Source of the DNA: a virus
Taxonomy: Duplodnaviria > Heunggongvirae > Uroviricota > Caudoviricetes
Virus record (IMG/VR): IMGVR_UViG_2711768072_000014
Direction: 5' to 3' (one strand)
Length of the DNA: 14,720 nt
Shown here: positions 3,756 to 14,720 of the stretch, one piece after another
How the letters are laid out: the number at the start of each line of letters is the position of its first letter
Position numbering within the stretch: the stretch's first letter is position 1
Program-made: the position numbers and the translations under genes
The notes under the pieces: model-generated
The model's input: only the letters and a program-made list of their open reading frames with translations
What the model was told of the DNA's origin: nothing
Database searches by the model: none

Positions 3756-4055
3756 ATGAAACTTAAATATTCTGGCTTAACTGCCAGTGGCAACACTCAC
3801 CCTAAATTTACGCGCGGTGATATTTACCGCGACCAGTACGGCGGCACGGTAATGATTAAGGGCGTGGCGGGACGGTGCGTAACTTACCGCCGTGAAGGTT
3901 ACGAATATGATTGCGTGATGCCTGTTTATCAGTTCCGGCGTGATTTTTCTCTGGTACAGACCGCGCCGCATAACGTGCCCACCAGCAACGCCAGGGCACG
4001 GGCAAACATCCAGAAGCTGAAAACCATGATTAACGGATTCAGGGGCAAGAAATGA
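3756..4055 (+). CDS. Hypothetical protein (99 aa)
   Basis: ATG at 3756 with GGAGA upstream. Stop overlaps the start of the replication gene (ATGA). Confidence 0.6.
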   Translation: MKLKYSGLTASGNTHPKFTRGDIYRDQYGGTVMIKGVAGRCVTYRREGYEYDCVMPVYQFRRDFSLVQTAPHNVPTSNARARANIQKLKTMINGFRGKK

Positions 4056-5449
4056 AAAGCGCACCGAACTTAAAAAAACAGCCTTACGACAAGATGACCG
4101 AAGTCATCATTTTTGCGGGTAGTGATGCGTGGGCACATGCGAAACAGTGGCAGGAACAGGACGGGCGACTGGCTGGCGATAATGTGCCTCCCATTGTGCT
4201 GGCTGATGATCAACTGGATGAACTGGCAGACCTGAGAATCATCGACGAGGGGCGCTATTGTGTCCGGCTGTACAAGGCAGGCCACATCAGGCCATCAAAT
4301 ATTAATGCCATTGCGCACAAGCTGGCGGCGGCGGGCGTAACTGATGCGAATTATTACCCCGAAGGGATACACAGCCAGAAGCGGGAGAACTGGCGCGAAT
4401 ATCTGGAACGGGAGCGGGGGAAAAAGCCAGGGGAAGAACACCACCAGCGAAAAACCACGCTACCGATGAGCGTTGGATCTGCCGGATACGACACGCAATT
4501 AGATTACGTGGTAAAGGGGATTATTCCGGCATCGTCGCTATGCAGCATATACGGGGCAAGCGGTTCCTATAAATCATTCCTTGCGGGTTCGTGGGCGTGT
4601 CACGTTTCCACGGGCCGCCAGTGGGGAGGCCGCAGGGTGGCGCATGGCGCTGTTCTCTATGTGGTTGGTGAAGGCGGTATCGGCGTTCCGCGTCGTGTAA
4701 AAGCCTGGGAGGTTGTGCACGGTGAGCAGGTGAAAAATCTGTATCTGGTAAACCGTCCAGTTTTTCCGGCTGTCCCGCTTGATGTTGATGAACTGGTTAT
4801 CGCTGCCCGTCAGGTGGAGCGGGAAACGGGTAAACCTGTACGCATGATTATTCTTGATACTCTGGCGCGTTGCTTTGGTGGCAATGATGAAAATGATTCC
4901 CGTGATATGGGGGCGTTTATCCGTGGGTGTGACGAGCTTAAACGGCGCACAGGGGCCACGGTGCTGGTGGTTCACCATTCCGGCAAGGATGAGACGAAAG
5001 GCGCGCGCGGTTCCAGTGCATTTCGTGCTTCGCTGGATGCTGAATACCGGATACGCAGGGAGGACGCAGGAAGCGAAGCGCTGGTTATCTCATGCACCAA
5101 AATGAAGGACGCGGAGGAACTCAAAGAGGCTGCCTATGATTTGCGGGTGGTGGAGCTTTTTACCGACGCTGACGGGGAGTTAATCACGTCGCTGGTGGTG
5201 GTGGATAAGCCGCGCCCTCCCGTTGAACTGGAGCGCATCGAGGAGGCAGGCAACAAGACGGAAAACCATACCGCACTATGGGGGTGCATCCGTTCACGCA
5301 CACAGAACGGCGACAAGTGCACGATCCCGCTGTTACGTGATGACATGAAACGGCTTGGGTATGACGTGAAAAATATGCGGCGATGGTTAGCCAAACTGGA
5401 AAAAGACGCCGTGATTTACATTGATGGTGATGATGTAGGACCACTGTAA
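4052..5449 (+). CDS. Replication protein with RecA-fold ATPase domain (AAA_25 / RepA-DnaB-like helicase type; PICI Pri-Rep-like)
   Basis: 465-aa ORF. Walker A-like YGASGSYKSF, Walker B-like MIILDTL and LVVHHSGKDETKG are arranged as in RecA-fold replicative ATPases of plasmids and satellites. Immediately followed by an iteron cluster. Confidence 0.8.
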   Translation: MKSAPNLKKQPYDKMTEVIIFAGSDAWAHAKQWQEQDGRLAGDNVPPIVLADDQLDELADLRIIDEGRYCVRLYKAGHIRPSNINAIAHKLAAAGVTDANYYPEGIHSQKRENWREYLERERGKKPGEEHHQRKTTLPMSVGSAGYDTQLDYVVKGIIPASSLCSIYGASGSYKSFLAGSWACHVSTGRQWGGRRVAHGAVLYVVGEGGIGVPRRVKAWEVVHGEQVKNLYLVNRPVFPAVPLDVDELVIAARQVERETGKPVRMIILDTLARCFGGNDENDSRDMGAFIRGCDELKRRTGATVLVVHHSGKDETKGARGSSAFRASLDAEYRIRREDAGSEALVISCTKMKDAEELKEAAYDLRVVELFTDADGELITSLVVVDKPRPPVELERIEEAGNKTENHTALWGCIRSRTQNGDKCTIPLLRDDMKRLGYDVKNMRRWLAKLEKDAVIYIDGDDVGPL

Positions 5450-5450
5450 A

Positions 5451-5648
5451 AAGTGAGTAGCAAAAGTGAGTAATGGTGAGGTTTTTACAAAATATTAACA
5501 CGATTGCTCACTTTCTCACCTGTATACATGCTCAAAAGTGAGGAGTAAAAAAATGCTTATGAAACATGCATATATAAAACACGAAAATCTCAAGCGAGAC
5601 GAAGTGAGACGCGTTAAAAAGTGAGGCGTAAAAGTGAGCGCGAGTGAG
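5451..5648. repeat. Putative replication origin: iterons of (A)AGTGAG in direct and inverted orientation flanking AT-rich spacers
   Basis: AAGTGAG at 5451, 5464, 5536, 5602, 5619 and 5632; GGTGAG at 5475; GAGTGAG at 5642; inverted copies CTCACTT and TCTCACC at 5507-5520. AT-rich stretches at 5481-5500 and 5545-5590. Directly downstream of the replication ATPase gene. Confidence 0.6.
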
Positions 5649-5660
5649 GAGATAACCAAA

Positions 5661-6214: not shown

Positions 6215-6625
6215 ATGACAGCACAAATTGCAGCTTACGGGCGGCTGGTGGACGACCCGCTGGTAAAACAGAGCAGCAAGGGCACACCGATGACTCTGGC
6301 GCGTATGGCGGTATCGTTGCCATGCAGCCAGGCACATGACGGACAGGCGACGTTATGGTTATCGGTTATCGCATTTGGCAAACAGGCCGATTTCCTGGCT
6401 AAACATCAAAAAGGCGATGTTGCCAGCGTATCCGGCACGATGCAGGTAAGCCAGTGGACCGGACAGAACGGGGAAACGCGGCGGGGGTATCAGGTTATTG
6501 CAGACAGCGTAATCAGTGCCCGCGCGGCACGTCCAGGCGGGAACAGACGCAAAACCACAGGCACACAGGGTAATCAGCCACCAGCGGGAGGCGATGACCC
6601 TTACGGTGACGGTATTCCGTTCTGA
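6215..6625 (+). CDS. ssb: Single-stranded DNA-binding protein (short SSB with acidic C-terminal tail)
   Basis: 136 aa. Core WLSVIAFGKQADFLAKHQKGD...QWTGQNGETRRGYQV parallels the E. coli SSB OB-fold (WHRVVLFGKLAE...KWTDQSGQDRY). The C-terminus DDPYGDGIPF matches the SSB protein-interaction tail (DDDIPF). GAGGTGG Shine-Dalgarno. Confidence 0.8.
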   Translation: MTAQIAAYGRLVDDPLVKQSSKGTPMTLARMAVSLPCSQAHDGQATLWLSVIAFGKQADFLAKHQKGDVASVSGTMQVSQWTGQNGETRRGYQVIADSVISARAARPGGNRRKTTGTQGNQPPAGGDDPYGDGIPF

Positions 6626-6635
6626 GGGGGTGACG

Positions 6636-6884
6636 ATGGTACATGACCGCACAGCGGAGGAACTCGAGGCAAAAGGCTTTTACCGGAGGGCGTCGGCGCG
6701 ATGGGGTGAAGTCATGCAACTGGTGGAGACAGACAAGGAACGGCATCAGGTTACGATGCGACGGCTGGAATGTTCCAGGAAGGCACAGAGGCCACCGGAG
6801 CCGCCAACGGAGAACTACGCAGACCTGAGAAATGCAGTAAATCGCACTTACGCAGACATGGGGCTGAGCAAATTAGCAGAGTAG
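6636..6884 (+). CDS. Small putative transcriptional regulator, PerC-like (tentative family assignment)
   Basis: 82 aa from ATG 6636, with GGGGG upstream just after the SSB stop. Motif AEELEAKGFYRRASARWGEVM resembles the LEAKG-x-RRAA-x-RW motif I recall for PerC/Pch-family activators; this is a recollection, not a search. The track ORF starting at 6516 overlaps ssb and is taken as an unlikely extension. Confidence 0.5.
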   Translation: MVHDRTAEELEAKGFYRRASARWGEVMQLVETDKERHQVTMRRLECSRKAQRPPEPPTENYADLRNAVNRTYADMGLSKLAE

Positions 6885-6907
6885 GAATATCAGAACCACA
6901 CCACGCA

Positions 6908-6938
6908 GCCGGAGCAATCCGGCTTTTTGTTATTTTTT
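6908..6938 (+). terminator. Intrinsic terminator after the PerC-like gene
   Basis: GCCGGA (6908-6913) pairs with TCCGGC (6918-6923) around a GCAA loop, followed by TTTTTGTTATTTTTT. Confidence 0.6.
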
Positions 6939-7150
6939 GTAAATTATTTGTTCGTGGTTGTTCCACGTTGTTCACTGAGCGGATCGGCATATTTTACCCG
7001 AACTGAATCATGATTATTCTCGCCCGTGGTGCCAGGACGCTGGGGCCACTTTCCTGCCTGTTAATGTGCCCGCCAATATTCATTACCAGGCGGGAAAACG
7101 ATCGGTGCGATTACTGATTTCCTTATGAAAAACGGTTGAGTGTTTGCCGC

Positions 7151-7189: not shown

Positions 7190-8347
7190 ATGCAGAGAAT
7201 AATCGAATTACGCCAGCAGAAAACCGCCATTAAAAATCAGATGCGCGACATGCTGGAGAACGCTGAAAAAGAAAACCGCAGTCTTAACGATGCTGAGGGC
7301 GCAAAATTTGACGAATTACGCGCTAAAGCTGAATCCCTCGATAAAGACATTTCCCGCCTTGAAGCCATTGCAGACGAAGAGCGCAGCAAGCCAGGTAAAA
7401 GCAGCCAGACCACTGACCCCGCAGAACTACGCAGCTACATTCTGACAGGTGAAACCCGCGCATTAAGTACAGGCGTTCCCGCTGATGGTGGTTATACCGT
7501 TATCCCCGAACTGAACACCGAAATCATGCGAATGCTGGCGGATGAATCCACCATGCGCCGCATCTGTACCGTGAAGAAAATCAGCAGCAACGAGTTTAAG
7601 CAGCTTGTTTCCGCTGGCGGTGCGACCGTTAACCACGGTGAAGAGGGTAAGGCACGCGAACAGACCAGCACCCCGCAGATTAACGAGGTGAGCATTAAGC
7701 TGTATCCGGTCTATGCGTACCCGCGCACCACGCAGGAAATCGTGGATTTTTCCGATGTGGACATCCTTTCATGGCTGACGGGCGAGATTGGCGACACCTT
7801 CACGGAAACCGAAGAAAGCGATCTGGTTGTGGGCGACGGTGACAAAAAAGCAAAAGGTTTTTTATCCGTACCCCGTGCAGAGAAGAACGACAAAGAGCGT
7901 GATTTTGGTACGTTGCAGGTAATTAAACCTTCCGAATCTCTGGCGTGGACATCTGCGGACCCGCTGATCGACCTGAAATTTGCATTACGTAAAAAATACC
8001 GCAAAAACGCGGTCTGGGTGGTTAACTCCACGACGGCCGCAAAACTTCAGAAGGTGAAGAACGCGAACGGTGATTACATCTGGCGCGACCGTTTACAGGC
8101 GGGTGATCCTGATACGTTGCTGGGCCTTCCGGTCGAATATCTGGAGTTTATGCCTGATAACGTTATTGCCCTGGGTGACTTCAAACGCGGTTACTACATT
8201 GTTGATCACGAAACAGGTGTTCGCACCAGACCGGACAACCTCACAGAGCCGGGCTTCATCAAAATTTTCACGCAGAAATATTTAGGCGGTGGCGTGGTGG
8301 ATTCGAACGCGATCAAGATTCTGGAACTGCCACAGGACGACGATTAA
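7190..8347 (+). CDS. Major capsid protein, HK97 fold, with N-terminal coiled-coil scaffolding (delta-like) domain
   Basis: 385 aa. The first ~100 residues are charged and helical (ELRQQKTAIKNQMRDMLENAEKE...DKDISRLEAIADEE), as in HK97-type delta domains. The remainder has a typical HK97-family capsid composition. No separate scaffold gene is present. Followed by protease and portal. Confidence 0.88.
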   Translation: MQRIIELRQQKTAIKNQMRDMLENAEKENRSLNDAEGAKFDELRAKAESLDKDISRLEAIADEERSKPGKSSQTTDPAELRSYILTGETRALSTGVPADGGYTVIPELNTEIMRMLADESTMRRICTVKKISSNEFKQLVSAGGATVNHGEEGKAREQTSTPQINEVSIKLYPVYAYPRTTQEIVDFSDVDILSWLTGEIGDTFTETEESDLVVGDGDKKAKGFLSVPRAEKNDKERDFGTLQVIKPSESLAWTSADPLIDLKFALRKKYRKNAVWVVNSTTAAKLQKVKNANGDYIWRDRLQAGDPDTLLGLPVEYLEFMPDNVIALGDFKRGYYIVDHETGVRTRPDNLTEPGFIKIFTQKYLGGGVVDSNAIKILELPQDDD

Positions 8348-8386: not shown

Positions 8387-8959
8387 ATGGGTGAAAAAAT
8401 TATGAAGAGTATGGAAATCCGGTCATCGGAAATCACTACCAGCGGAGCCGGTACGCTGACGGGCTACGTTGTTCGCTGGGATAAGCTTTCAGAACTGCTA
8501 TGGGGGGAGTTTTACGAAAAATTCCAGCGGGGGGCGTTTACTGAGTGGCTTGCGGCGGATAATGACGTTCGCGGCCTGTATGAGCATGACCACAGCATGT
8601 TACTGGGGCGCACCCGTTCCGGCACGCTGAAACTGGAAGAGGACGAAACAGGGTTACGCTTTGAACTGACCCCACCGGATACCAGTACAGGGCGCGACGT
8701 TATCGAACTGGTTAAACGAGGTGATATATCCGGCATGAGCTTTGGCTTTCGTTCCCGTAAGGATGTATGGGATACCACAACAGATCCATGCGTGCGCACC
8801 GTGCTGGTGGCGGAACTGTACGAAATTACCGTTACATCCGTACCGGCTTACCCTGATTCCGGCGTGGAGCTGGCCCGCCGCTCCCTGTACGAGCAGCACC
8901 CCGAAAAAATGCCGCGTGCGGATAATCGCCGCTGGTGGGCGGATTTAGCGGGGGTGTGA
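8387..8959 (+). CDS. Prohead maturation protease, HK97 family (S78-type)
   Basis: 190 aa. Motifs GYVVRWD, YEHDHS, GMSFGF and VPAYPDS parallel HK97 gp4-type prohead proteases (GYAAVFD, WAHD, GLSIGF, FPAN). Start may instead be ATG 8402 or 8411. Confidence 0.85.
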   Translation: MGEKIMKSMEIRSSEITTSGAGTLTGYVVRWDKLSELLWGEFYEKFQRGAFTEWLAADNDVRGLYEHDHSMLLGRTRSGTLKLEEDETGLRFELTPPDTSTGRDVIELVKRGDISGMSFGFRSRKDVWDTTTDPCVRTVLVAELYEITVTSVPAYPDSGVELARRSLYEQHPEKMPRADNRRWWADLAGV

Positions 8960-8960
8960 T

Positions 8961-10172
8961 ATGTGGCCTTTCAGAAGAAAAAAAGAGCAGCGCAGCATGA
9001 CGCTTGATGAGTTTATGGCGCTGGCCGGCACATCGAACACGGGGGCTGGTGAGTACGTATCATCGGGGACAGCGGAATCACTGCCCGCCGTCATGAACGC
9101 CGTCACGGTCATCTCTGAGGCGGTGGCTACCATGCCGTGTTACCTGTACCTGGTACGCAATGAGAAGGGGAAGGAGGCCCGAGAGTGGCTTGATTCTCAT
9201 CCGGTCGATCACATCCTCAACGAGCGCCCGAACGCATGGCAAACCCCCTACCAGTTTAAGCGAATGATGATCCGCCACTGCCTGTTAAACGGTAATGCTT
9301 ACGCGGTGATTCAGTGGGGGCGTGATGGTTTTCCGGCGGCTTTACATCCTTACCCGCCGCAGTCGGTGAACGTGGAGCAGACAGGTGAGCATAACTGGCG
9401 CTATTGCATCACTGACGCCTACACCGGAAACACCCGCAACTATTTACCGTGGGAGGTTCTCCACCTTCGTTACTCCACGGATGACGGTTTTATGGGGCGC
9501 TCACCTGTAACCATCTGCCGCGAATCGCTGGGGCTTGGGCTGGCCCAACAACGCCACGGCGCGAGCGTGATGCGTGATGGCATGATGGCGGCAGGGGTTA
9601 TCACGTCAGGCGAATGGCTGGACGGCGTGAAGGGCAAACAGGCATTAGCCGCACTGGAACGCTACAAAGGGGCCAGAAACGCCGGAAAAACGCCCATCCT
9701 TGAAGGGGGTATGAGCTATCAGCAGCTGGGCATGAGTAATCAGGATGCTGAATGGCTGGCCTCCCGTCGCTTCACCATTGAAGACATCGCCCGAATGTTC
9801 AACGTCTCGCCGATTTTTTTGCAGGAATACAGCAACAGCACCTACAGCAATTTCAGCGAGGCAAGCCGCGCATTTCTCACCATGACGATGCGCCCGTGGC
9901 TGGCGAACTTTGAGCAGCAGATAAAAAACGCCCTGCTGGTGGCCTCACCTGTACCTGGTATCCGGTATCAGGTGGAGTTTGACAGCGCGGACCTGTTACG
10001 GGCCACTCCTGGCGAACGCTTTGCCACCTATGAACGCGGCATCAAATCCGGCGTTATGTGCCCGAACGAAGCCCGCGAACGTGAAGGGCTGTCCCCGCGT
10101 GATGGTGGTGATGAGTTCAGCCAGGCATGGAAACAGGAAGTAAAAATCAGCGAGGGAGAAAAACCGGAATGA
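8961..10172 (+). CDS. Portal protein, HK97 family
   Basis: 403-aa ORF. ATG overlaps the protease stop; GGGGGT Shine-Dalgarno. Size, position between protease and adaptor, and composition fit HK97-type portals. Confidence 0.85.
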   Translation: MWPFRRKKEQRSMTLDEFMALAGTSNTGAGEYVSSGTAESLPAVMNAVTVISEAVATMPCYLYLVRNEKGKEAREWLDSHPVDHILNERPNAWQTPYQFKRMMIRHCLLNGNAYAVIQWGRDGFPAALHPYPPQSVNVEQTGEHNWRYCITDAYTGNTRNYLPWEVLHLRYSTDDGFMGRSPVTICRESLGLGLAQQRHGASVMRDGMMAAGVITSGEWLDGVKGKQALAALERYKGARNAGKTPILEGGMSYQQLGMSNQDAEWLASRRFTIEDIARMFNVSPIFLQEYSNSTYSNFSEASRAFLTMTMRPWLANFEQQIKNALLVASPVPGIRYQVEFDSADLLRATPGERFATYERGIKSGVMCPNEAREREGLSPRDGGDEFSQAWKQEVKISEGEKPE

Positions 10173-10507
10173 ACATAGGGCGACTGCGTGACAGGGTAAC
10201 GATTCAGACCCTGAAACAGACCAGGGATATAACCGGCGAAATACTCGAAACGTGGGTGGACGGTCACACACTCTGGGCAAGCGTGAACATGATCAGCAGC
10301 AAGGAGGCCATTTCATCGGGTGCAGAACTGGCGACTGGAACGGTAAGGATATGGATACGCTACAGGAAGGACATCAACGCCACCAGCCGGATAAAGGTCA
10401 ATACGGGGCCGCTGGCGGGGCGTGTACTGAATATCATCGGGCAGCCGCTGCCGGATGCCGCCAGGACACGCCTTGAAATTCTTTGTCGTGAGGGCGCGGA
10501 AAAATGA
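10169..10507 (+). CDS. Head closure / head-tail joining protein
   Basis: 112 aa from ATG 10169, which overlaps the portal stop (ATGA). N-terminal RLRDRVTIQ...W..VWASV pattern is typical of phage head-tail joining proteins. The track ORF starts at 10127 inside the portal gene. Confidence 0.7.
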   Translation: MNIGRLRDRVTIQTLKQTRDITGEILETWVDGHTLWASVNMISSKEAISSGAELATGTVRIWIRYRKDINATSRIKVNTGPLAGRVLNIIGQPLPDAARTRLEILCREGAEK

Positions 10508-10800
10508 CAGAAGAACTTATCACCCTGGAAGAAGTGAAACTCCATTGCCGCATCGATGGCGACGAGGAAGACCAGTTAATCAGCGGATACATCGCCGCAT
10601 CGCTTGAGGCGTGCCAGATACACATAGGCAGGCGCTTTGATGACGGGCTGGAGTTCACGCCAGCCATAAAGATTGGCTGCATGATGTTTATCGCTCACCT
10701 GTATGAAAATCGCCAGATTGTCGCGGATAACGCAAAAACACGCGTACCCATGACGATTGGTGCACTCTGGACGGCTTACCGTGATGTGGGGGTGTACTGA
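10504..10800 (+). CDS. Head-tail connector protein, gp6-like
   Basis: 98 aa. N-terminal LITLEEVKLHCRIDGDEEDQLISGYIAAS resembles gp6-like connector proteins (L.LEE.K.HLRID...D.LI). ATG overlaps the upstream stop. Confidence 0.7.
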   Translation: MTEELITLEEVKLHCRIDGDEEDQLISGYIAASLEACQIHIGRRFDDGLEFTPAIKIGCMMFIAHLYENRQIVADNAKTRVPMTIGALWTAYRDVGVY

Positions 10801-11240
10801 TGCCGTGGCAACCATTAAGACGATGCACAGAACCAGGCTGTAACAGGCGCGTGAAGTCCGGCAAGTGTGAGGAGCACAGGCGGGCGGCATGGCGTGCAGA
10901 GGATGCCAGACGAGGACACCGCCGCGCGCGTGGGTACTCCAGACAGTGGGACAAATACCGCGCCATGTATCTGAGTAAAAACCCGTTATGCGTGCGATGC
11001 CTTGAGAAGGGGATATATACGCCCGCCGTGGTGGTGGATCACATTATCCCGATTAATGGCGGTGATGATGTTCTCTTCTGGCCCGAATGGAACCATCAGC
11101 CATTGTGCCAGGCGTGCCATAACCAGAAAACGAAATGGCTTGATCCGGCAACAAAAAGCAAGCGTGCCGCAGGTGGATTTCGTGAAGAGGAAGAACGGGC
11201 CGCTAACCGCAATAACTGGATGTATGACGCTGATGAATGA
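10800..11240 (+). CDS. HNH endonuclease (packaging-associated)
   Basis: 146 aa. CxxC...CxxC zinc-binding cysteines and VDHIIPINGG...NHQPLCQACHNQKT match the HNH motif (DH..P....N.Q.LC..CH..K). Located immediately upstream of terS as in HK97-like cos phages. Confidence 0.9.
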   Translation: MPWQPLRRCTEPGCNRRVKSGKCEEHRRAAWRAEDARRGHRRARGYSRQWDKYRAMYLSKNPLCVRCLEKGIYTPAVVVDHIIPINGGDDVLFWPEWNHQPLCQACHNQKTKWLDPATKSKRAAGGFREEEERAANRNNWMYDADE

Positions 11241-11529: not shown

Positions 11530-11886
11530 ATGGCAAGACCACCGAAAGCCCCCGCCTACCTGGATGATATCGCCGTGAAGCAGTGGCGGGAAAAATCGCG
11601 GCAGCTTGCGGAACGGGGAGACCTTACCCCCGCCGACTGGAGTAATCTGGAACTGTATTGTGTCAACTACTCCATTTACCGGAAAGCCGTTGCAGACCTT
11701 GCGGCGCGCGGGTTCAGCATTGTTAACAGTCAGGGCGGCGAGAGCAGAAACCCCGCATTAAGCGCAAAATCCGACGCTGAAAGAGTGATGATAAAAATGG
11801 CCTCTTTGCTCGGTTTTGACCCGATAAGCCGCCGTAAAAATCCACCGGAAACAGAAGAAGAGGACGAGCTTGACCGCCTGGAATAA
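11530..11886 (+). CDS. terS: Terminase small subunit, P27 family
   Basis: 118 aa. Pattern W...LAERGDLTPADWSNLELYCVNYSIYRKA...LGFDPISRRK is typical of P27-family small terminases. Directly precedes and overlaps the large terminase. Confidence 0.85.
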   Translation: MARPPKAPAYLDDIAVKQWREKSRQLAERGDLTPADWSNLELYCVNYSIYRKAVADLAARGFSIVNSQGGESRNPALSAKSDAERVMIKMASLLGFDPISRRKNPPETEEEDELDRLE

Positions 11887-13531
11887 GTACGCAGAAGACG
11901 TAAAAACGGGCAAAATTCCGGCCTGTAAACGGCTGAAACAGGCCGTTAAACGGTACTTTTCGGACCTTGAAAGCCCCCTTTACACGTTCGATCGTGAGGT
12001 TGTGGAGCGGTTTATTGCCTTTTCCAGGGTGTGCCCGCACGTAAAAGGCGCAATGCGCGGTAGCCCCATTGAGCTGGAGCCGTGGCAGCAGTTCGCCTTT
12101 GCGTGCATCCTCGGCTTTAAGGTTAAGGCCACCGGACGGCGCAAATACACGAGCGCCTTTATCGAAGTGCCGCGCAAAAATGCGAAATCCACGACCGCCG
12201 CGATTCTGGCTAACTGGTTTTTGATTATGGAGAACGGTCAGCAGGATATCTACACCGCAGCGGTGAGCCGTGACCAGGCGCGGATCGTCTTTGATGATGC
12301 GCGTCAGATGTGCCTTTTATCCCGACCGTTACGCAGGCGGGTGAATATTCAGGCGCATAAGGTGATACACCCGAAAAGCAACAGCCTGTTAAAGCCGCTG
12401 GCAGCAAAAGCGGCAACCATTGAAGGTACAAACCCGAGTCTTGCCATTGTGGATGAATATCACCTGCACCCTGACAACGGGGTTTATTCCGCGCTTGAAC
12501 TGGGAATGGGGGCGCGTCCGGAGGGGCTGTTATTTGCCATCACCACATCGGGGAGCAACGTTGTTTCAGCCTGTAAACAACACTACGACTATTGCTGCCA
12601 GATACTGGATGGTGAAGAGGTGAACGAATCCATGTTCGTGCTGATTTACGAGCTGGATGATGAAAGCGAGGTTGACGATCCGGCGATGTGGATAAAGGCG
12701 AATCCCAATATCGATGTTTCCGTCGATCGTGAAAAACTGGCCTCAACCATCCAGAAAGCGCGGGGAATACCGTCGCAGTGGGTGGAGATGATGACAAAGC
12801 GATTTAATATCTGGTGCCAGGGGGCTACCCCGTGGATGGGTAACGGCGCATGGGCTGAGTGTGCCGGAACGTTCACGGAGGAAGATTTACACGGCCAGGA
12901 GTGTTACGCGGGGCTGGATTTATCATCAACCAGCGATATTTCCAGCGTATGCTATGCCTTTCCGGTCGGTAAAACCATTATGCTGATTTCCCGTCATTAT
13001 CTGCCGGAGTTCCAGCTACAGAACCCCGCCAATAAAAACCGCGCTGTCTATCGTCAGTGGGCTAAAGCGGGCTGGATACGCACAACGCCTGGCGACTGCA
13101 TTGATTACGACCGGATCAGAGATGACATCATGCAGGACGCGGAGAAATTTCATATCAGGCTGGTGGGCTTTGATACGTGGAACGCCACGCATCTCAGAAC
13201 GCAATTACAGGGGGCAGGTTTTGAGGTGGAGCCGTTCCCGCAAACCTACCTCAGATTCAGTCCGGCGGCGAAATCGTTCGAAGTTTTTGTTAACCGCAGG
13301 GTGATTGTGCATCGTGGCGATCCGGTGTTGTCCTGGTCGATGAGTAACGTCGTGATGCAGAGTGACGCGAACGCCAATATCAAGCCGAACAAGAAAAAAT
13401 CACCGAACAAGATAGACCCGAGCGTAGCGGCGCTGATGGCGTTTGGTACATTCCAGGCAGAGCATGAGGATTTTGCTTTTGATATAAGCGACAGCCACCG
13501 CCAGAAACTGGAAGAATTTAGCGGGGTGTAA
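11870..13531 (+). CDS. terL: Terminase large subunit (ATPase plus nuclease domains)
   Basis: 553 aa. Walker A-like VPRKNAKSTTAA in the N-terminal ATPase region, acidic motifs (IVDEYH) and a C-terminal nuclease-like region. TTG start at 11870 preceded by GAGGA, overlapping terS. Confidence 0.9.
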   Translation: MTAWNKYAEDVKTGKIPACKRLKQAVKRYFSDLESPLYTFDREVVERFIAFSRVCPHVKGAMRGSPIELEPWQQFAFACILGFKVKATGRRKYTSAFIEVPRKNAKSTTAAILANWFLIMENGQQDIYTAAVSRDQARIVFDDARQMCLLSRPLRRRVNIQAHKVIHPKSNSLLKPLAAKAATIEGTNPSLAIVDEYHLHPDNGVYSALELGMGARPEGLLFAITTSGSNVVSACKQHYDYCCQILDGEEVNESMFVLIYELDDESEVDDPAMWIKANPNIDVSVDREKLASTIQKARGIPSQWVEMMTKRFNIWCQGATPWMGNGAWAECAGTFTEEDLHGQECYAGLDLSSTSDISSVCYAFPVGKTIMLISRHYLPEFQLQNPANKNRAVYRQWAKAGWIRTTPGDCIDYDRIRDDIMQDAEKFHIRLVGFDTWNATHLRTQLQGAGFEVEPFPQTYLRFSPAAKSFEVFVNRRVIVHRGDPVLSWSMSNVVMQSDANANIKPNKKKSPNKIDPSVAALMAFGTFQAEHEDFAFDISDSHRQKLEEFSGV

Positions 13532-13544
13532 TGAGGTCAGCAGC

Positions 13545-13826
13545 ATGACAGAAGCCGAAATACTGCGATTAATCCGCCGCGTCTCTGGAATCAGCCAGCA
13601 GCATGACGAACAGGCCACGCAGCCGGACAGCGTGACCGCCGAAAATTATGCGCGTGTTGTTGCTGAGGTGATGCGCCGTGATGGTATCCAGCTTAATGAT
13701 GTGGATATGCGCAACATACGGATCCGCGTTCTTGAAATGCTGGCCTACCGTCGCCGCGTGCAGACGTACAGGGAAAAAGCAAAAATTACGTACCACTGGA
13801 AGAAGCCGGAGCGGTTACGGCGGTAA
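13545..13826 (+). CDS. Hypothetical protein (93 aa), last gene before the noncoding right end
   Basis: ORF in the track. GAGG 9 nt upstream of ATG. No recognisable motif. Confidence 0.5.
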   Translation: MTEAEILRLIRRVSGISQQHDEQATQPDSVTAENYARVVAEVMRRDGIQLNDVDMRNIRIRVLEMLAYRRRVQTYREKAKITYHWKKPERLRR

Positions 13827-13831
13827 CTGGT

Positions 13832-13859
13832 TGAACTTAAAGCAAAGCGCAAAATTGCG
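13832..13859. repeat. 28-bp perfect direct repeat, copy 1 (TGAACTTAAAGCAAAGCGCAAAATTGCG)
   Basis: Identical to 14051-14078; start-to-start distance 219 bp. Contains the internal inverted repeat GCGCAA..TTGCG. Confidence 0.9.
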
Positions 13860-13872
13860 TTGGCTGGTGGGT

Positions 13873-13892
13873 GAGTTGCAGATCTGCAACTC
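13873..13892. repeat. 20-bp perfect palindrome GAGTTGCAGATCTGCAACTC
   Basis: Sequence is its own reverse complement. Shares the TGCA-N4-TGCA core with the palindrome at 14101-14124. Confidence 0.9.
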
Positions 13893-14050
13893 GACCATGA
13901 AATTACGGAAAATACCCGTAGTTTGGGTAGTAAGAGTAACACCCAGATTTTGGGGCTTACTCGCGATACCCAAATAAAGGGTATCGGTGGAAGAAATATC
14001 GTTTCTCATATGTGAGTACCGAGGGCGGAATTCCGCCTTCGGTTACTCGC

Positions 14051-14078
14051 TGAACTTAAAGCAAAGCGCAAAATTGCG
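14051..14078. repeat. 28-bp perfect direct repeat, copy 2
   Basis: Identical to 13832-13859. Confidence 0.9.
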
Positions 14079-14100
14079 CTGATTACTGGTTGGAATTGTT

Positions 14101-14124
14101 CCAGAGTGCAAATTTGCACTCTGG
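14101..14124. repeat. 24-bp perfect palindrome CCAGAGTGCAAATTTGCACTCTGG
   Basis: Sequence is its own reverse complement. TGCA-N4-TGCA core as in 13873-13892. Confidence 0.9.
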
Positions 14125-14555
14125 CCTAACCCGTTGATATTTCCGGCAACCTCAATTTGAGGAGATCGGAAACATCACCCTTCAAATTCTGAATGGTCAT
14201 AATGACCACGCAGACCATCAAGGCAACCACAACGAACATCGTTACGGTTGGAGCTTTTACCCCACTGGGGAAAAGGTACGCACCTGAATCATCATTACCG
14301 TGATCAAGGGTATGTAAAGCCCACCAGCCTGATTAACGTTTAACCGGAAAAAAATTCCGGTAGGTGGGGATCCCCATATCGACATTAACGCCCCTCATGA
14401 ATTGGTGCGCTTCCCCCTGGAAAGATGACCCGCCTTTATATTTCTTGTGTCTATTTGTTCCACGTTGTTTCATACAGTGCACCGAACGGTGTAGTCACTG
14501 GTGTAGTCATTTTGCGATTTTTGGCACTTTTTGTGGTGCAAATTATTTAATTAAA

Positions 14556-14720
14556 TCAATTAGTTAAGTTAAATAAGTTATATATAACAGCAATAAATAA
14601 TGCGAGAATAAACGGCACGATGATCTCGGCGGCAAAACGGATACCGCAGAGAATAATGACCAGCATTCCCAACATAATGACGATTTTTAGGCCATTGAGC
14701 GTGATGATCGGCTTTGCCAT
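14556..14720 (-). pseudogene. tqsA: 5' fragment of a membrane transporter gene (TqsA/YdgG-like N-terminus) ending in a stop after 54 codons; not in the ORF track
   Basis: Hand translation of the reverse complement from ATG 14720-14718: [54 protein letters not shown]. The first ~46 residues match my recollection of the E. coli TqsA N-terminus; the last 8 codons run into AT-rich DNA. Confidence 0.4.

Follow-up and report, generated by a model that had tools for sequence, protein, structure and literature searches.

What is the gene-free, densely repetitive DNA at the right end of a phage satellite, and what might it do there? The question is raised by IMG/VR virus record IMGVR_UViG_2711768072_000014, a 14,720-nucleotide stretch (hereafter the window) that, judged from its sequence, is almost exactly one Escherichia coli capsid-forming phage-inducible chromosomal island (cf-PICI) of 14.7 kb. 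Between the end of the island's last gene, which we term ORF93, and the host gene tqsA lie ~730 bp without a credible gene. A sequence-only reading of positions 13827-14140 had drawn attention to two identical 28-mers and to palindromes sharing a TGCA-N4-TGCA core, and had proposed that these might be duplicated attachment cores, recombinase or regulator binding sites, or a structured small RNA. Our analysis indicates that the 28-mer pair and the palindromes are parts of a modular, hairpin-dense, non-coding spacer situated between ORF93 and the integrase arm of the attachment site attP.

Anatomy and distribution of the ORF93-downstream spacer

The repeats that had first caught attention were confirmed. 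The 28-mer TGAACTTAAAGCAAAGCGCAAAATTGCG occurs exactly twice (13832-13859 and 14051-14078), with 0 mismatches, whereas 200 shuffles did not give a single match. At 83% identity, the two copies can be traced over 53 nt (13821-13873 versus 14040-14092). The 20-bp palindrome GAGTTGCAGATCTGCAACTC and the 24-bp palindrome CCAGAGTGCAAATTTGCACTCTGG are both perfect, and the further stem-loops at 13964-13986 and 14019-14042 are present, the second sitting inside a longer hairpin at 14014-14048. The absence of a convincing open reading frame (ORF) likewise stands: the overlapping ORFs of 64-99 amino acids (aa) lack codon periodicity and relatives differ by 1-nt insertions or deletions (indels), while ORF93, serving as the coding control, is periodic, with 47, 37 and 73 variable sites by codon position. 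Features that the earlier reading had not recorded are a third, canonical unit at 14127-14175, two Chi sites, and structure reaching to ~14375. The spacer comprises the following features (strand given where one applies):

13821-13873, plus strand: repeat copy 1, a degenerate box-plus-hairpin unit with box TAACTGGTTGAAC, the 28-mer at 13832-13859 and hairpin GCGCAA/TTGCGT
13863-13870, plus strand: Chi site GCTGGTGG, immediately after copy 1
13873-13892: perfect 20-bp palindrome GAGTTGCAGATCTGCAACTC
13913-13983: three YACCC-N7-GGGKM hairpins starting at 13913, 13940 and 13967, at a spacing of exactly 27 nt
14014-14048: long hairpin GAGTACCGAGGGCGGAATTCCGCCTTCGGTTACTC
14040-14092, plus strand: repeat copy 2, a degenerate unit with decayed box TTACTCGCTGAAC and the 28-mer at 14051-14078; terminator-like when read on the minus strand, with modest hairpin energies
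14101-14124: perfect 24-bp palindrome CCAGAGTGCAAATTTGCACTCTGG
14127-14175, plus strand: canonical unit, with box TAACCCGTTGATA (a perfect YAANNNNTTGATW) followed by the two-tier hairpin UUUCCG..CCUCA-AUU-UGAGG..CGGAAA
14194-14375: further hairpin modules at 14194-14208, 14224-14250, 14254-14275, 14343-14361 and 14366-14375
14321-14328, minus strand: Chi site

Repeat copy 1 begins at the ORF93 stop codon, which is the TAA of box TAACTGGTTGAAC. Folding of 13815-14400 (586 nt) gave a z-score of -11.5 against dinucleotide shuffles, and in a 300-nt sliding scan the segments 13801-14100 (z -10.0) and 13951-14250 (z -9.5) were the two strongest outliers in the window, where the median was -0.5.

For comparison, genomes, proviruses and metagenomes supplied 55 distinct stretches downstream of ORF93. 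Across this set, a unit of ~48 nt recurs, consisting of a box, TAA-N4-YTGATW, and a two-tier stem-loop in which a small internal loop separates the outer stem (for example UUUCCG/CGGAAA) from a 5-6-bp inner stem closed by a loop of 3-4 nt. The inner stem varies from unit to unit (CCUCA, CAGCC, CCCCC, CCACAG, GCGCA, GCUCA and others), and among 87 distinct units the box is conserved while the hairpin sequence turns over. In the 28-mer copies, which represent a degenerate subtype, the outer stem has an A-rich linker, TTAAAGCAAA, where its T-rich 5' half would be, the box is decayed and the hairpin is shorter. Against a covariance model of the unit, copy 1 scored as a weak match (9.4 bits) and the canonical unit at 14127-14175 reached 59.7 bits (E 2e-18). 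Each island carries one to seven units, often arranged head to tail at 48-49 nt, with spacings of 43, 46 and 49 nt also found.

Box orientation relative to ORF93 was nearly invariant, with 111 boxes forward and 1 reverse; the strict consensus YAANNNNTTGATW occurred 82 times forward and 15 times in reverse in 42 kb, versus 0.65 expected. Integration host factor (IHF) recognizes the consensus WATCARNNNNTTR, and the fixed and free positions of the box follow the same pattern; 63 of the 87 distinct units fit this consensus. Likenesses of the box to the phiX174/pC194 nick site (TTGATA) or to the integron attC core (GCCTAAC) were dropped, there being no HUH or integron integrase gene and no matching second core.

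The covariance model returned 121 matches in 48 loci, nearly all full-length ones adjoining ORF93 on the same strand. Four weak matches (17-22 bits; in loci L075 and L111) lie kilobases away from ORF93, the K-12 control locus gave no match, and matches to the 16-mer box elsewhere come without the hairpin. In all islands compared, ORF93 lies directly upstream of the spacer. The resulting ORF93-plus-spacer module occurs at many integration sites and in PICIs of three types that differ in their packaging genes: cf-PICIs, lambda-cos PICIs (whose carriers of the module encode Phage_cap_E, a head decoration protein, and Nu1 or Rpp) and a type represented by a 10.8-kb circle. Because the module is also found in PICIs with lambda-type packaging, it is independent of the packaging system.

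The composition of the spacer, in turn, is mosaic. Among the 55 distinct spacers there are 36 box layouts, module order differs between islands, and fusion and deletion variants are present: in one lineage the second 28-mer hairpin is fused to half of the 24-bp palindrome, half of this palindrome is deleted in relatives L007, L008 and L013, and in other islands the long hairpin GAGTACCGAGGGCGGAATTCCGCCTTCGGTTACTC lies on the opposite side of the palindrome block. Block 13898-13990 recurs jointly with the 20-bp palindrome in ~23 of the 55 spacers, only ~10 positions vary in a 145-position alignment of the block from nine distinct carriers, and the block 13868-14012 is better conserved than ORF93. 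Stem 14254-14275 still pairs in relatives despite its changed sequence. We read the TGCA palindromes and the other stem-loops as separate hairpin modules that are reshuffled between islands. A test for homology breakpoints at the box was discarded, as it was confounded by unit-to-unit matches.

Two further right ends deserve mention. Loci L023 and L024 (UYIS01000011.1, ~11 kb apart) are two tandem PICIs, the L024 spacer after ORF93 leading directly into the integrase gene of the next island. In a phoQ-integrated island, represented by one metagenome/provirus spacer, unit TAACCCGTTGATTCTTTCGG is joined to host sequence ACATATTTATTCATC... at the exact position of the normal junction, with the entire attP arm gone, which suggests a deletion ending at the core.

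Compensatory changes indicate that pairing, and not sequence, is kept in the unit hairpins. We aligned 36 distinct canonical units to a structure that was entered by hand, since RNAalifold gave no consensus. Nine of the 11 pairs change on both sides, including five of five in the inner helix, and covariation exceeded that of all 500 shuffles and all slid controls. In 23 distinct units of the 28-mer type, the 6-bp stem is 96% paired, with GC exchanged for UA, AU or CG, and two of the six pairs change on both sides. The outer stem of the canonical unit contains many U.G pairs on the plus strand, and the plus strand was the more stable one in 42 units versus 16 (p ~0.01).

Searches of Rfam 15 with the window and two richer arrays, at gathering and permissive thresholds, gave no gathering-level match (best 14-17 bits versus gathering thresholds of 56-97), and a search for tRNA or transfer-messenger RNA found none. 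Of the proposal that the region is a structured small RNA, one part therefore fits, namely that compensatory stems and strict co-orientation agree with a transcribed structure, whereas neither a promoter nor an Rfam family supports a discrete small RNA.

Finally, the Chi sequence GCTGGTGG is strongly overrepresented, with 18 copies in the 14.7-kb window versus 0.49 expected from shuffles (plus strand: 873, 2034, 4963, 5191, 5982, 6244, 8803, 8931, 9935, 13159 and 13863; minus strand: 2773, 3162, 3979, 4441, 6578, 10380 and 14321). This density is several-fold above the E. coli average. Right-end spacers contain 79 Chi sites in 46.6 kb versus ~1.4 expected, and an episomal relative of 10.8 kb, locus L125, contains nine. 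The satellite may depend on Chi for recombination or for surviving RecBCD once injected, and dense Chi probably feeds the reshuffling of the spacer.

Possible roles of the spacer

Our leading reading, put forward tentatively and by analogy, is that the spacer is the satellite counterpart of the chromosomal bacterial interspersed mosaic elements (BIMEs) of the reiterative ihf BIME (RIB) type, combining the 3' tail of the late operon with an IHF-binding buffer ahead of attP and the integrase gene int. At the RNA level, it would form the untranslated tail of the late packaging operon, its stem-loops blocking 3' exonucleases and damping read-through. At the DNA level, the candidate sites would bind IHF, and late transcription would be kept off attP and int in the excised circle, or off the neighbouring host gene in the integrated state. 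The mosaic would be explained if repeats and Chi sites together turn the spacer into a hot spot of recombination. We infer transcription of the spacer, IHF binding and a benefit to the island from a set of features compatible with this reading: there is no plus-strand terminator downstream of ORF93 in the window, so that late transcripts should run into the spacer, units are strictly co-oriented, stability is mildly asymmetric in favour of the plus strand, and the circle has the order ORF93-array-attP-int (see below).

Several observations weigh against it. Part of the agreement with the IHF consensus follows from the pattern with which the units were collected, and the two 28-mer units deviate from this consensus by two and three positions; going by the box sequences, IHF would be expected on canonical units and not on the 28-mer units. 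As paralogues related by descent, the units are less independent than the covariation statistics imply, and palindromic DNA would yield the same compensatory signal as structured RNA. RNA folding on one strand is only weakly supported, as hairpin mismatch counts show no strand bias (23 G.T versus 25 A.C) and whole-region folds are equally stable on both strands. On the plus strand, the hairpins lack U-tails and are thus not canonical terminators. Neutral DNA, too, would show heavy reshuffling of this kind, in which some islands have lost half of the 24-bp palindrome.

This last point leads to an explanation that we consider unlikely, if well worth weighing: the units could be neutral recombination debris, that is, duplicated ORF93 3' ends plus hairpin that arose by Chi-stimulated or illegitimate recombination between co-resident or tandem satellites and have no function of their own. 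The first unit does overlap the ORF93 stop, and tandem units retain a GGCG(N)GGTAAC lead-in resembling the ORF93 end. The many box layouts with their fusion and deletion variants, the existence of tandem islands and the very dense Chi sites are all in line with such an origin, and tandem duplication by itself would preserve a single orientation. What speaks against debris is that every pair of the inner helix changes on both sides, with such changes also in the 28-mer hairpin, that the box is conserved despite hairpin turnover, and that the module persists in three PICI types across different packaging genes and many integration sites.

A rather improbable alternative turns the units around. 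Each 28-mer, read on the minus strand, would be an intrinsic terminator (AGCGCA-AUUU-UGCGCU followed by UUGCUUUAAGUU) that ends small RNAs made from the spacer or stops transcription from the tqsA promoter before it enters the packaging genes in antisense. Minus-strand terminator-like sites are found at 14080-14065 and 13929-13913 and a promoter-like minus-strand site at 14318-14291, U-tailed hairpins are more often minus-only (20) than plus-only (12), and the T-rich tail TTTGCTTTAA of the 28-mer family is nearly invariant, with the stem changing compensatorily. However, the stems measure just 6 bp, their 53-nt contexts reach -6.5 and -11.7 kcal/mol, and copy 1, at the weaker value on the minus strand owing to an A.C mismatch, is more stable on the plus strand. 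Moreover, counts of terminator-like and promoter-like sites lie within shuffle expectation, the candidate promoters are weak and no more than partly conserved among relatives, no Rfam match was obtained, and canonical units are not terminators on either strand.

To a satellite-specific function of the array itself we assign a similarly small probability. The array could be transcribed as a multi-hairpin RNA that is cut at the boxes into ~48-nt stem-loops acting as decoys or guides against helper or competitor phages, perhaps together with ORF93, and the variable stems could then possibly give each island its own specificity; or it could be an IHF-phased DNA scaffold that is needed for excision, packaging or re-integration.

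Operators for dimeric DNA-binding proteins, be it a satellite or helper regulator or possibly ORF93, have little probability in our estimate. They would comprise the TGCA-N4-TGCA palindromes and the three TACCC-N7-GGGTA repeats. The perfect 20-bp and 24-bp palindromes have KTGCARATYTGCAM in common, the three 17-bp inverted repeats keep an exact 27-bp spacing, the surrounding block 13868-14012 shows the high conservation described above, and ORF93 is small, basic and always adjacent. Yet palindrome sequences vary widely within and between islands with pairing kept, a better fit to nucleic-acid structure than to the specificity of one protein; module order changes, half of the 24-bp palindrome is gone in the three relatives named above, and the predicted model of ORF93 shows no recognisable DNA-binding fold. 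The earlier suggestion of recombinase or regulator binding sites gains no support for the 28-mers or for the TGCA palindromes: the 24-bp palindrome is half-lost in one relative, and the palindromes are too divergent within an island for a single protein. The unit family that includes the 28-mers does, however, have a box that matches the IHF consensus.

Small proteins encoded on the minus strand, for instance a 37-aa ORF at 14126-14239 that runs through the canonical unit and ends ...LRLPEISTG, are highly improbable. This frame is open in five diverged variants, an IQNL.G..S motif recurs, and the spacing of tandem units is often 48 nt, equal to 16 codons. Nevertheless, variable sites are distributed 17, 17 and 10 by codon position, without the third-position excess seen in ORF93, 1-nt indels separate relatives, unit spacings of 43, 46 and 49 nt occur, residues encoded by the hairpin change wholly while pairing is kept, and the one ORF of the stretch that was searched had no family match. 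On periodicity and indels, we rejected this option.

Attachment site, circular form and island context

Replication origins and cosB regions typically contain repeats, palindromes and IHF-type boxes, and the stretch might accordingly be a packaging site (cos or pac) or the satellite's origin; both are highly unlikely. At least six iterons AAAAGTGAG lie in both orientations at 5447-5660, immediately after the AAA_25 helicase gene and ~8 kb from the hairpin stretch, in a region that is itself a structural outlier (z -5.7). The usual place of a PICI origin is directly after the helicase gene, and 5447-5660 is likely the island's replication origin, so the hairpin stretch is not. As for packaging, the lambda cosN GGGCGGCGACCT was not found in the window at up to two mismatches. 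Lambda-cos PICIs (L003 and L005-L024; for example, L005 at 1558 and 2425) carry two exact, inverted copies of GGGCGGCGACCT flanking the Nu1/Rpp gene, both upstream of ORF93, the second by 76 bp, in agreement with cos1 and cos2 as published for EcCICFT073 (PMC6739421). The module is, moreover, common to islands with unrelated terminases. The hairpin stretch is thus probably not cos, the cf-PICI's own cos location lying outside this analysis, and we take metagenome contig ends inside the array to be assembly breaks and not cos ends.

The attachment site itself was located to the right of the spacer:

14454-14509, plus strand: start of the attP arm, with TTGTTC direct repeats at 14454-14472 and tandem GGTGTAGTCA arm-type repeats at 14487-14509
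14554-14566, minus strand: IHF-consensus site in an AT-rich arm, 18 bp from the core
14584-14592: att core ATAACAGCA, at the junction with tqsA, from comparison of the empty site, attL and attR

The tandem GGTGTAGTCA repeats recur shortly upstream of int, and the core lies ~500 bp right of the hairpin-repeat stretch. A direct view of the excised state came from L125 (NZ_CP148328.1; 10,790 bp), filed as a non-mobilizable E. coli plasmid, which is a circular PICI with int, alpA, primase, a protease-capsid fusion, DUF1441, ORF93, hairpin array and attP, and which we interpret as an excised satellite captured by assembly. Around the circle, the order is ORF93, hairpin array, arm repeats, core region, arm repeats and int, all in one orientation, with arm repeats ACGGTGTAGTTAATGGTGTAGTTAA at 10687-10711 and 137-161 and the array ending at ~10620.

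The 28-mers had been proposed as duplicated attachment cores or as a remnant of a previous tandem insertion, an idea suggested by a direct repeat pair near the right end of the integrated element and refuted here, leaving it next to no probability: the K-12 empty tqsA site, attL and attR have ATAACAGCA alone in common and not the 28-mer, no third copy occurs at the left junction or elsewhere in 34.6 kb across both junctions of a complete genome with the same right end, unit number and spacing vary among islands, and the arm repeats and IHF site occupy 14454-14566, with the array lying outside the arm-repeat pair that brackets attP in the circle.

TTGTTC(N3-4)TTGTTC direct repeats were also observed upstream of the capsid operon (6947-6974) as well as in both attP arms (14454-14472; L001 ~2850-2880; L125 10660-10690 and ~100-125). 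One protein, at a guess the AlpA-type regulator, may control both excision and late transcription.

The island is inserted within the coding sequence of tqsA, which encodes the autoinducer-2 (AI-2) exporter. The first 48 codons are cut off, and both tqsA parts are annotated as pseudogenes in RefSeq (window 14577-14720; L001 1849-2754). Strains CFSAN027343 and SCPM-O-B-9504 are among the carriers of this island. Its genes are the following:

1-1218: integrase (int)
3756-4055: DUF4222 protein
4052-5449: AAA_25 helicase
6215-6625: SSB
6516-6884: PerC
7190-8347: major capsid protein
8387-8959: prohead protease
8961-10172: portal
10127-10800: two connector proteins
10800-11240: HNH endonuclease
11530-11886: P27-type small terminase (TerS)
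11870-13531: large terminase (TerL)
13545-13826, plus strand: ORF93, 93 aa, phrog_1561 (a family of unknown function), the island's last gene
14577-14720, minus strand: tqsA 5' fragment

The complete genome with the identical right end has, in RefSeq order, 'phage major capsid protein', 'HK97 family phage prohead protease', 'phage portal protein', 'HNH endonuclease' and 'terminase', its last gene being a 'hypothetical protein'. Gene content agrees with the E. coli PICI and cf-PICI anatomy in the literature (EcCICFT073, EcCIEDL933; PMC6739421, bioRxiv 10.1101/2022.09.08.507074). None of the passages retrieved from the PICI and cf-PICI papers searched refers to the hairpin spacer, the repeat units or ORF93, and no connection to the locus was found in the literature on prophage small RNAs of enterohaemorrhagic E. 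coli (AgvB/AsxR, Esr055, Pas) or on PICI transcriptomics.

Searches with ORF93 gave little more. Its AlphaFold model, a mediocre one, predicts three helices (pLDDT 67) and had no Foldseek match in the PDB; the protein matched no Pfam family, and in PHROGs only phrog_1561. A phage database held no match to either the spacer DNA or the ORF93 protein, plasmid database matches were confined to PICI-like records, and a genome-contig scan with ORF93 returned one locus, in Shigella.

Elsewhere in the window, a Cys- and Arg-rich 341-aa ORF at 1839-2864 appears spurious. The equivalent region of L001 holds several small genes (HTH regulator, YlcI/YnfO, Icd-like) and a different, primase-type replication gene, so that the two islands have common ends and unlike middles. 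Segment 6901-7200 ranks second among the structural outliers of the window (z -7.8), with a strong intrinsic terminator after PerC at ~6905-6935 and then a long structured leader ahead of the capsid gene.

PICIs and cf-PICIs are studied as major gene-transfer vehicles and as engineered delivery particles, and their maps have so far shown genes, att and cos only. The array occupies the usual place of cargo insertion and, in the excised form, immediately precedes attP and int. Expression of the late operon and integrase, recombination of satellites with one another and the stable upkeep of engineered inserts could therefore all be influenced by it. Should it be functional, the BIME/RIB idea would apply to mobile satellites as well as to chromosomes, and the array would offer a compact test system for such elements. 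If neutral, it still explains assembly breaks at this place and the mosaic right ends.

Comparison with known systems

The closest likeness is to BIME-1 elements of the E. coli chromosome, also named RIB or repetitive IHF-binding palindromic (RIP) elements, in which repetitive extragenic palindromes (REPs) flank an IHF site at the 3' ends of transcription units; they were reportedly described in 1993 by Boccard and Prentki and by Oppenheim et al. Like these, the satellite unit joins an IHF-consensus box to imperfect palindromes, is extragenic and follows directly on the last gene of an operon, and both are repeated, prone to recombination and only partly understood in function. The differences are equally clear. 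Compared by eye with the REP consensus (GCCGGATG...), the satellite units show no similarity; they have one hairpin per IHF box, whereas a BIME has two inverted REPs around it; they form co-oriented head-to-tail arrays with a period of ~48 nt; and they are found only downstream of ORF93 and not scattered in the chromosome. Because REP is missing, the spacer would work like a BIME/RIB element without being a member of that family.

Other systems share single aspects. With REPs and other mRNA-stabilising stem-loops at 3' ends, and with lambda sib, the spacer has in common that stem-loops without U-tails stand at the end of an operon; as in sib, the element lies beside attP, so that integration and excision alter what it joins, and in the circle it comes between the late operon and int. 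In contrast to sib, int is transcribed away from attP here, with the array upstream and not downstream of it, and hairpins of 11-12 bp are shorter than typical RNase III substrates. Intrinsic terminators resemble the 28-mer family on the minus strand, where a short GC hairpin precedes a conserved T-rich tail, but the 28-mer stems are weak at 6 bp and canonical units lack a U-tail on both strands. Similarly, the sopC centromere of F and the ToxI antitoxin of type III systems consist of head-to-tail units of 36-48 nt, each with an inverted repeat, beside a small gene. Their units are nearly identical, however, whereas hairpins of a single satellite array differ from one another. The genes beside the array are those for TerL, ORF93 (without a Pfam family) and int, with none of the ParA/SopA or ToxN type, and gene order is opposite to that of type III loci. 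Taken together, these comparisons suggest that the spacer is a satellite-specific, tandem and directional form of extragenic IHF-palindrome repeats, and in that form appears to be new.

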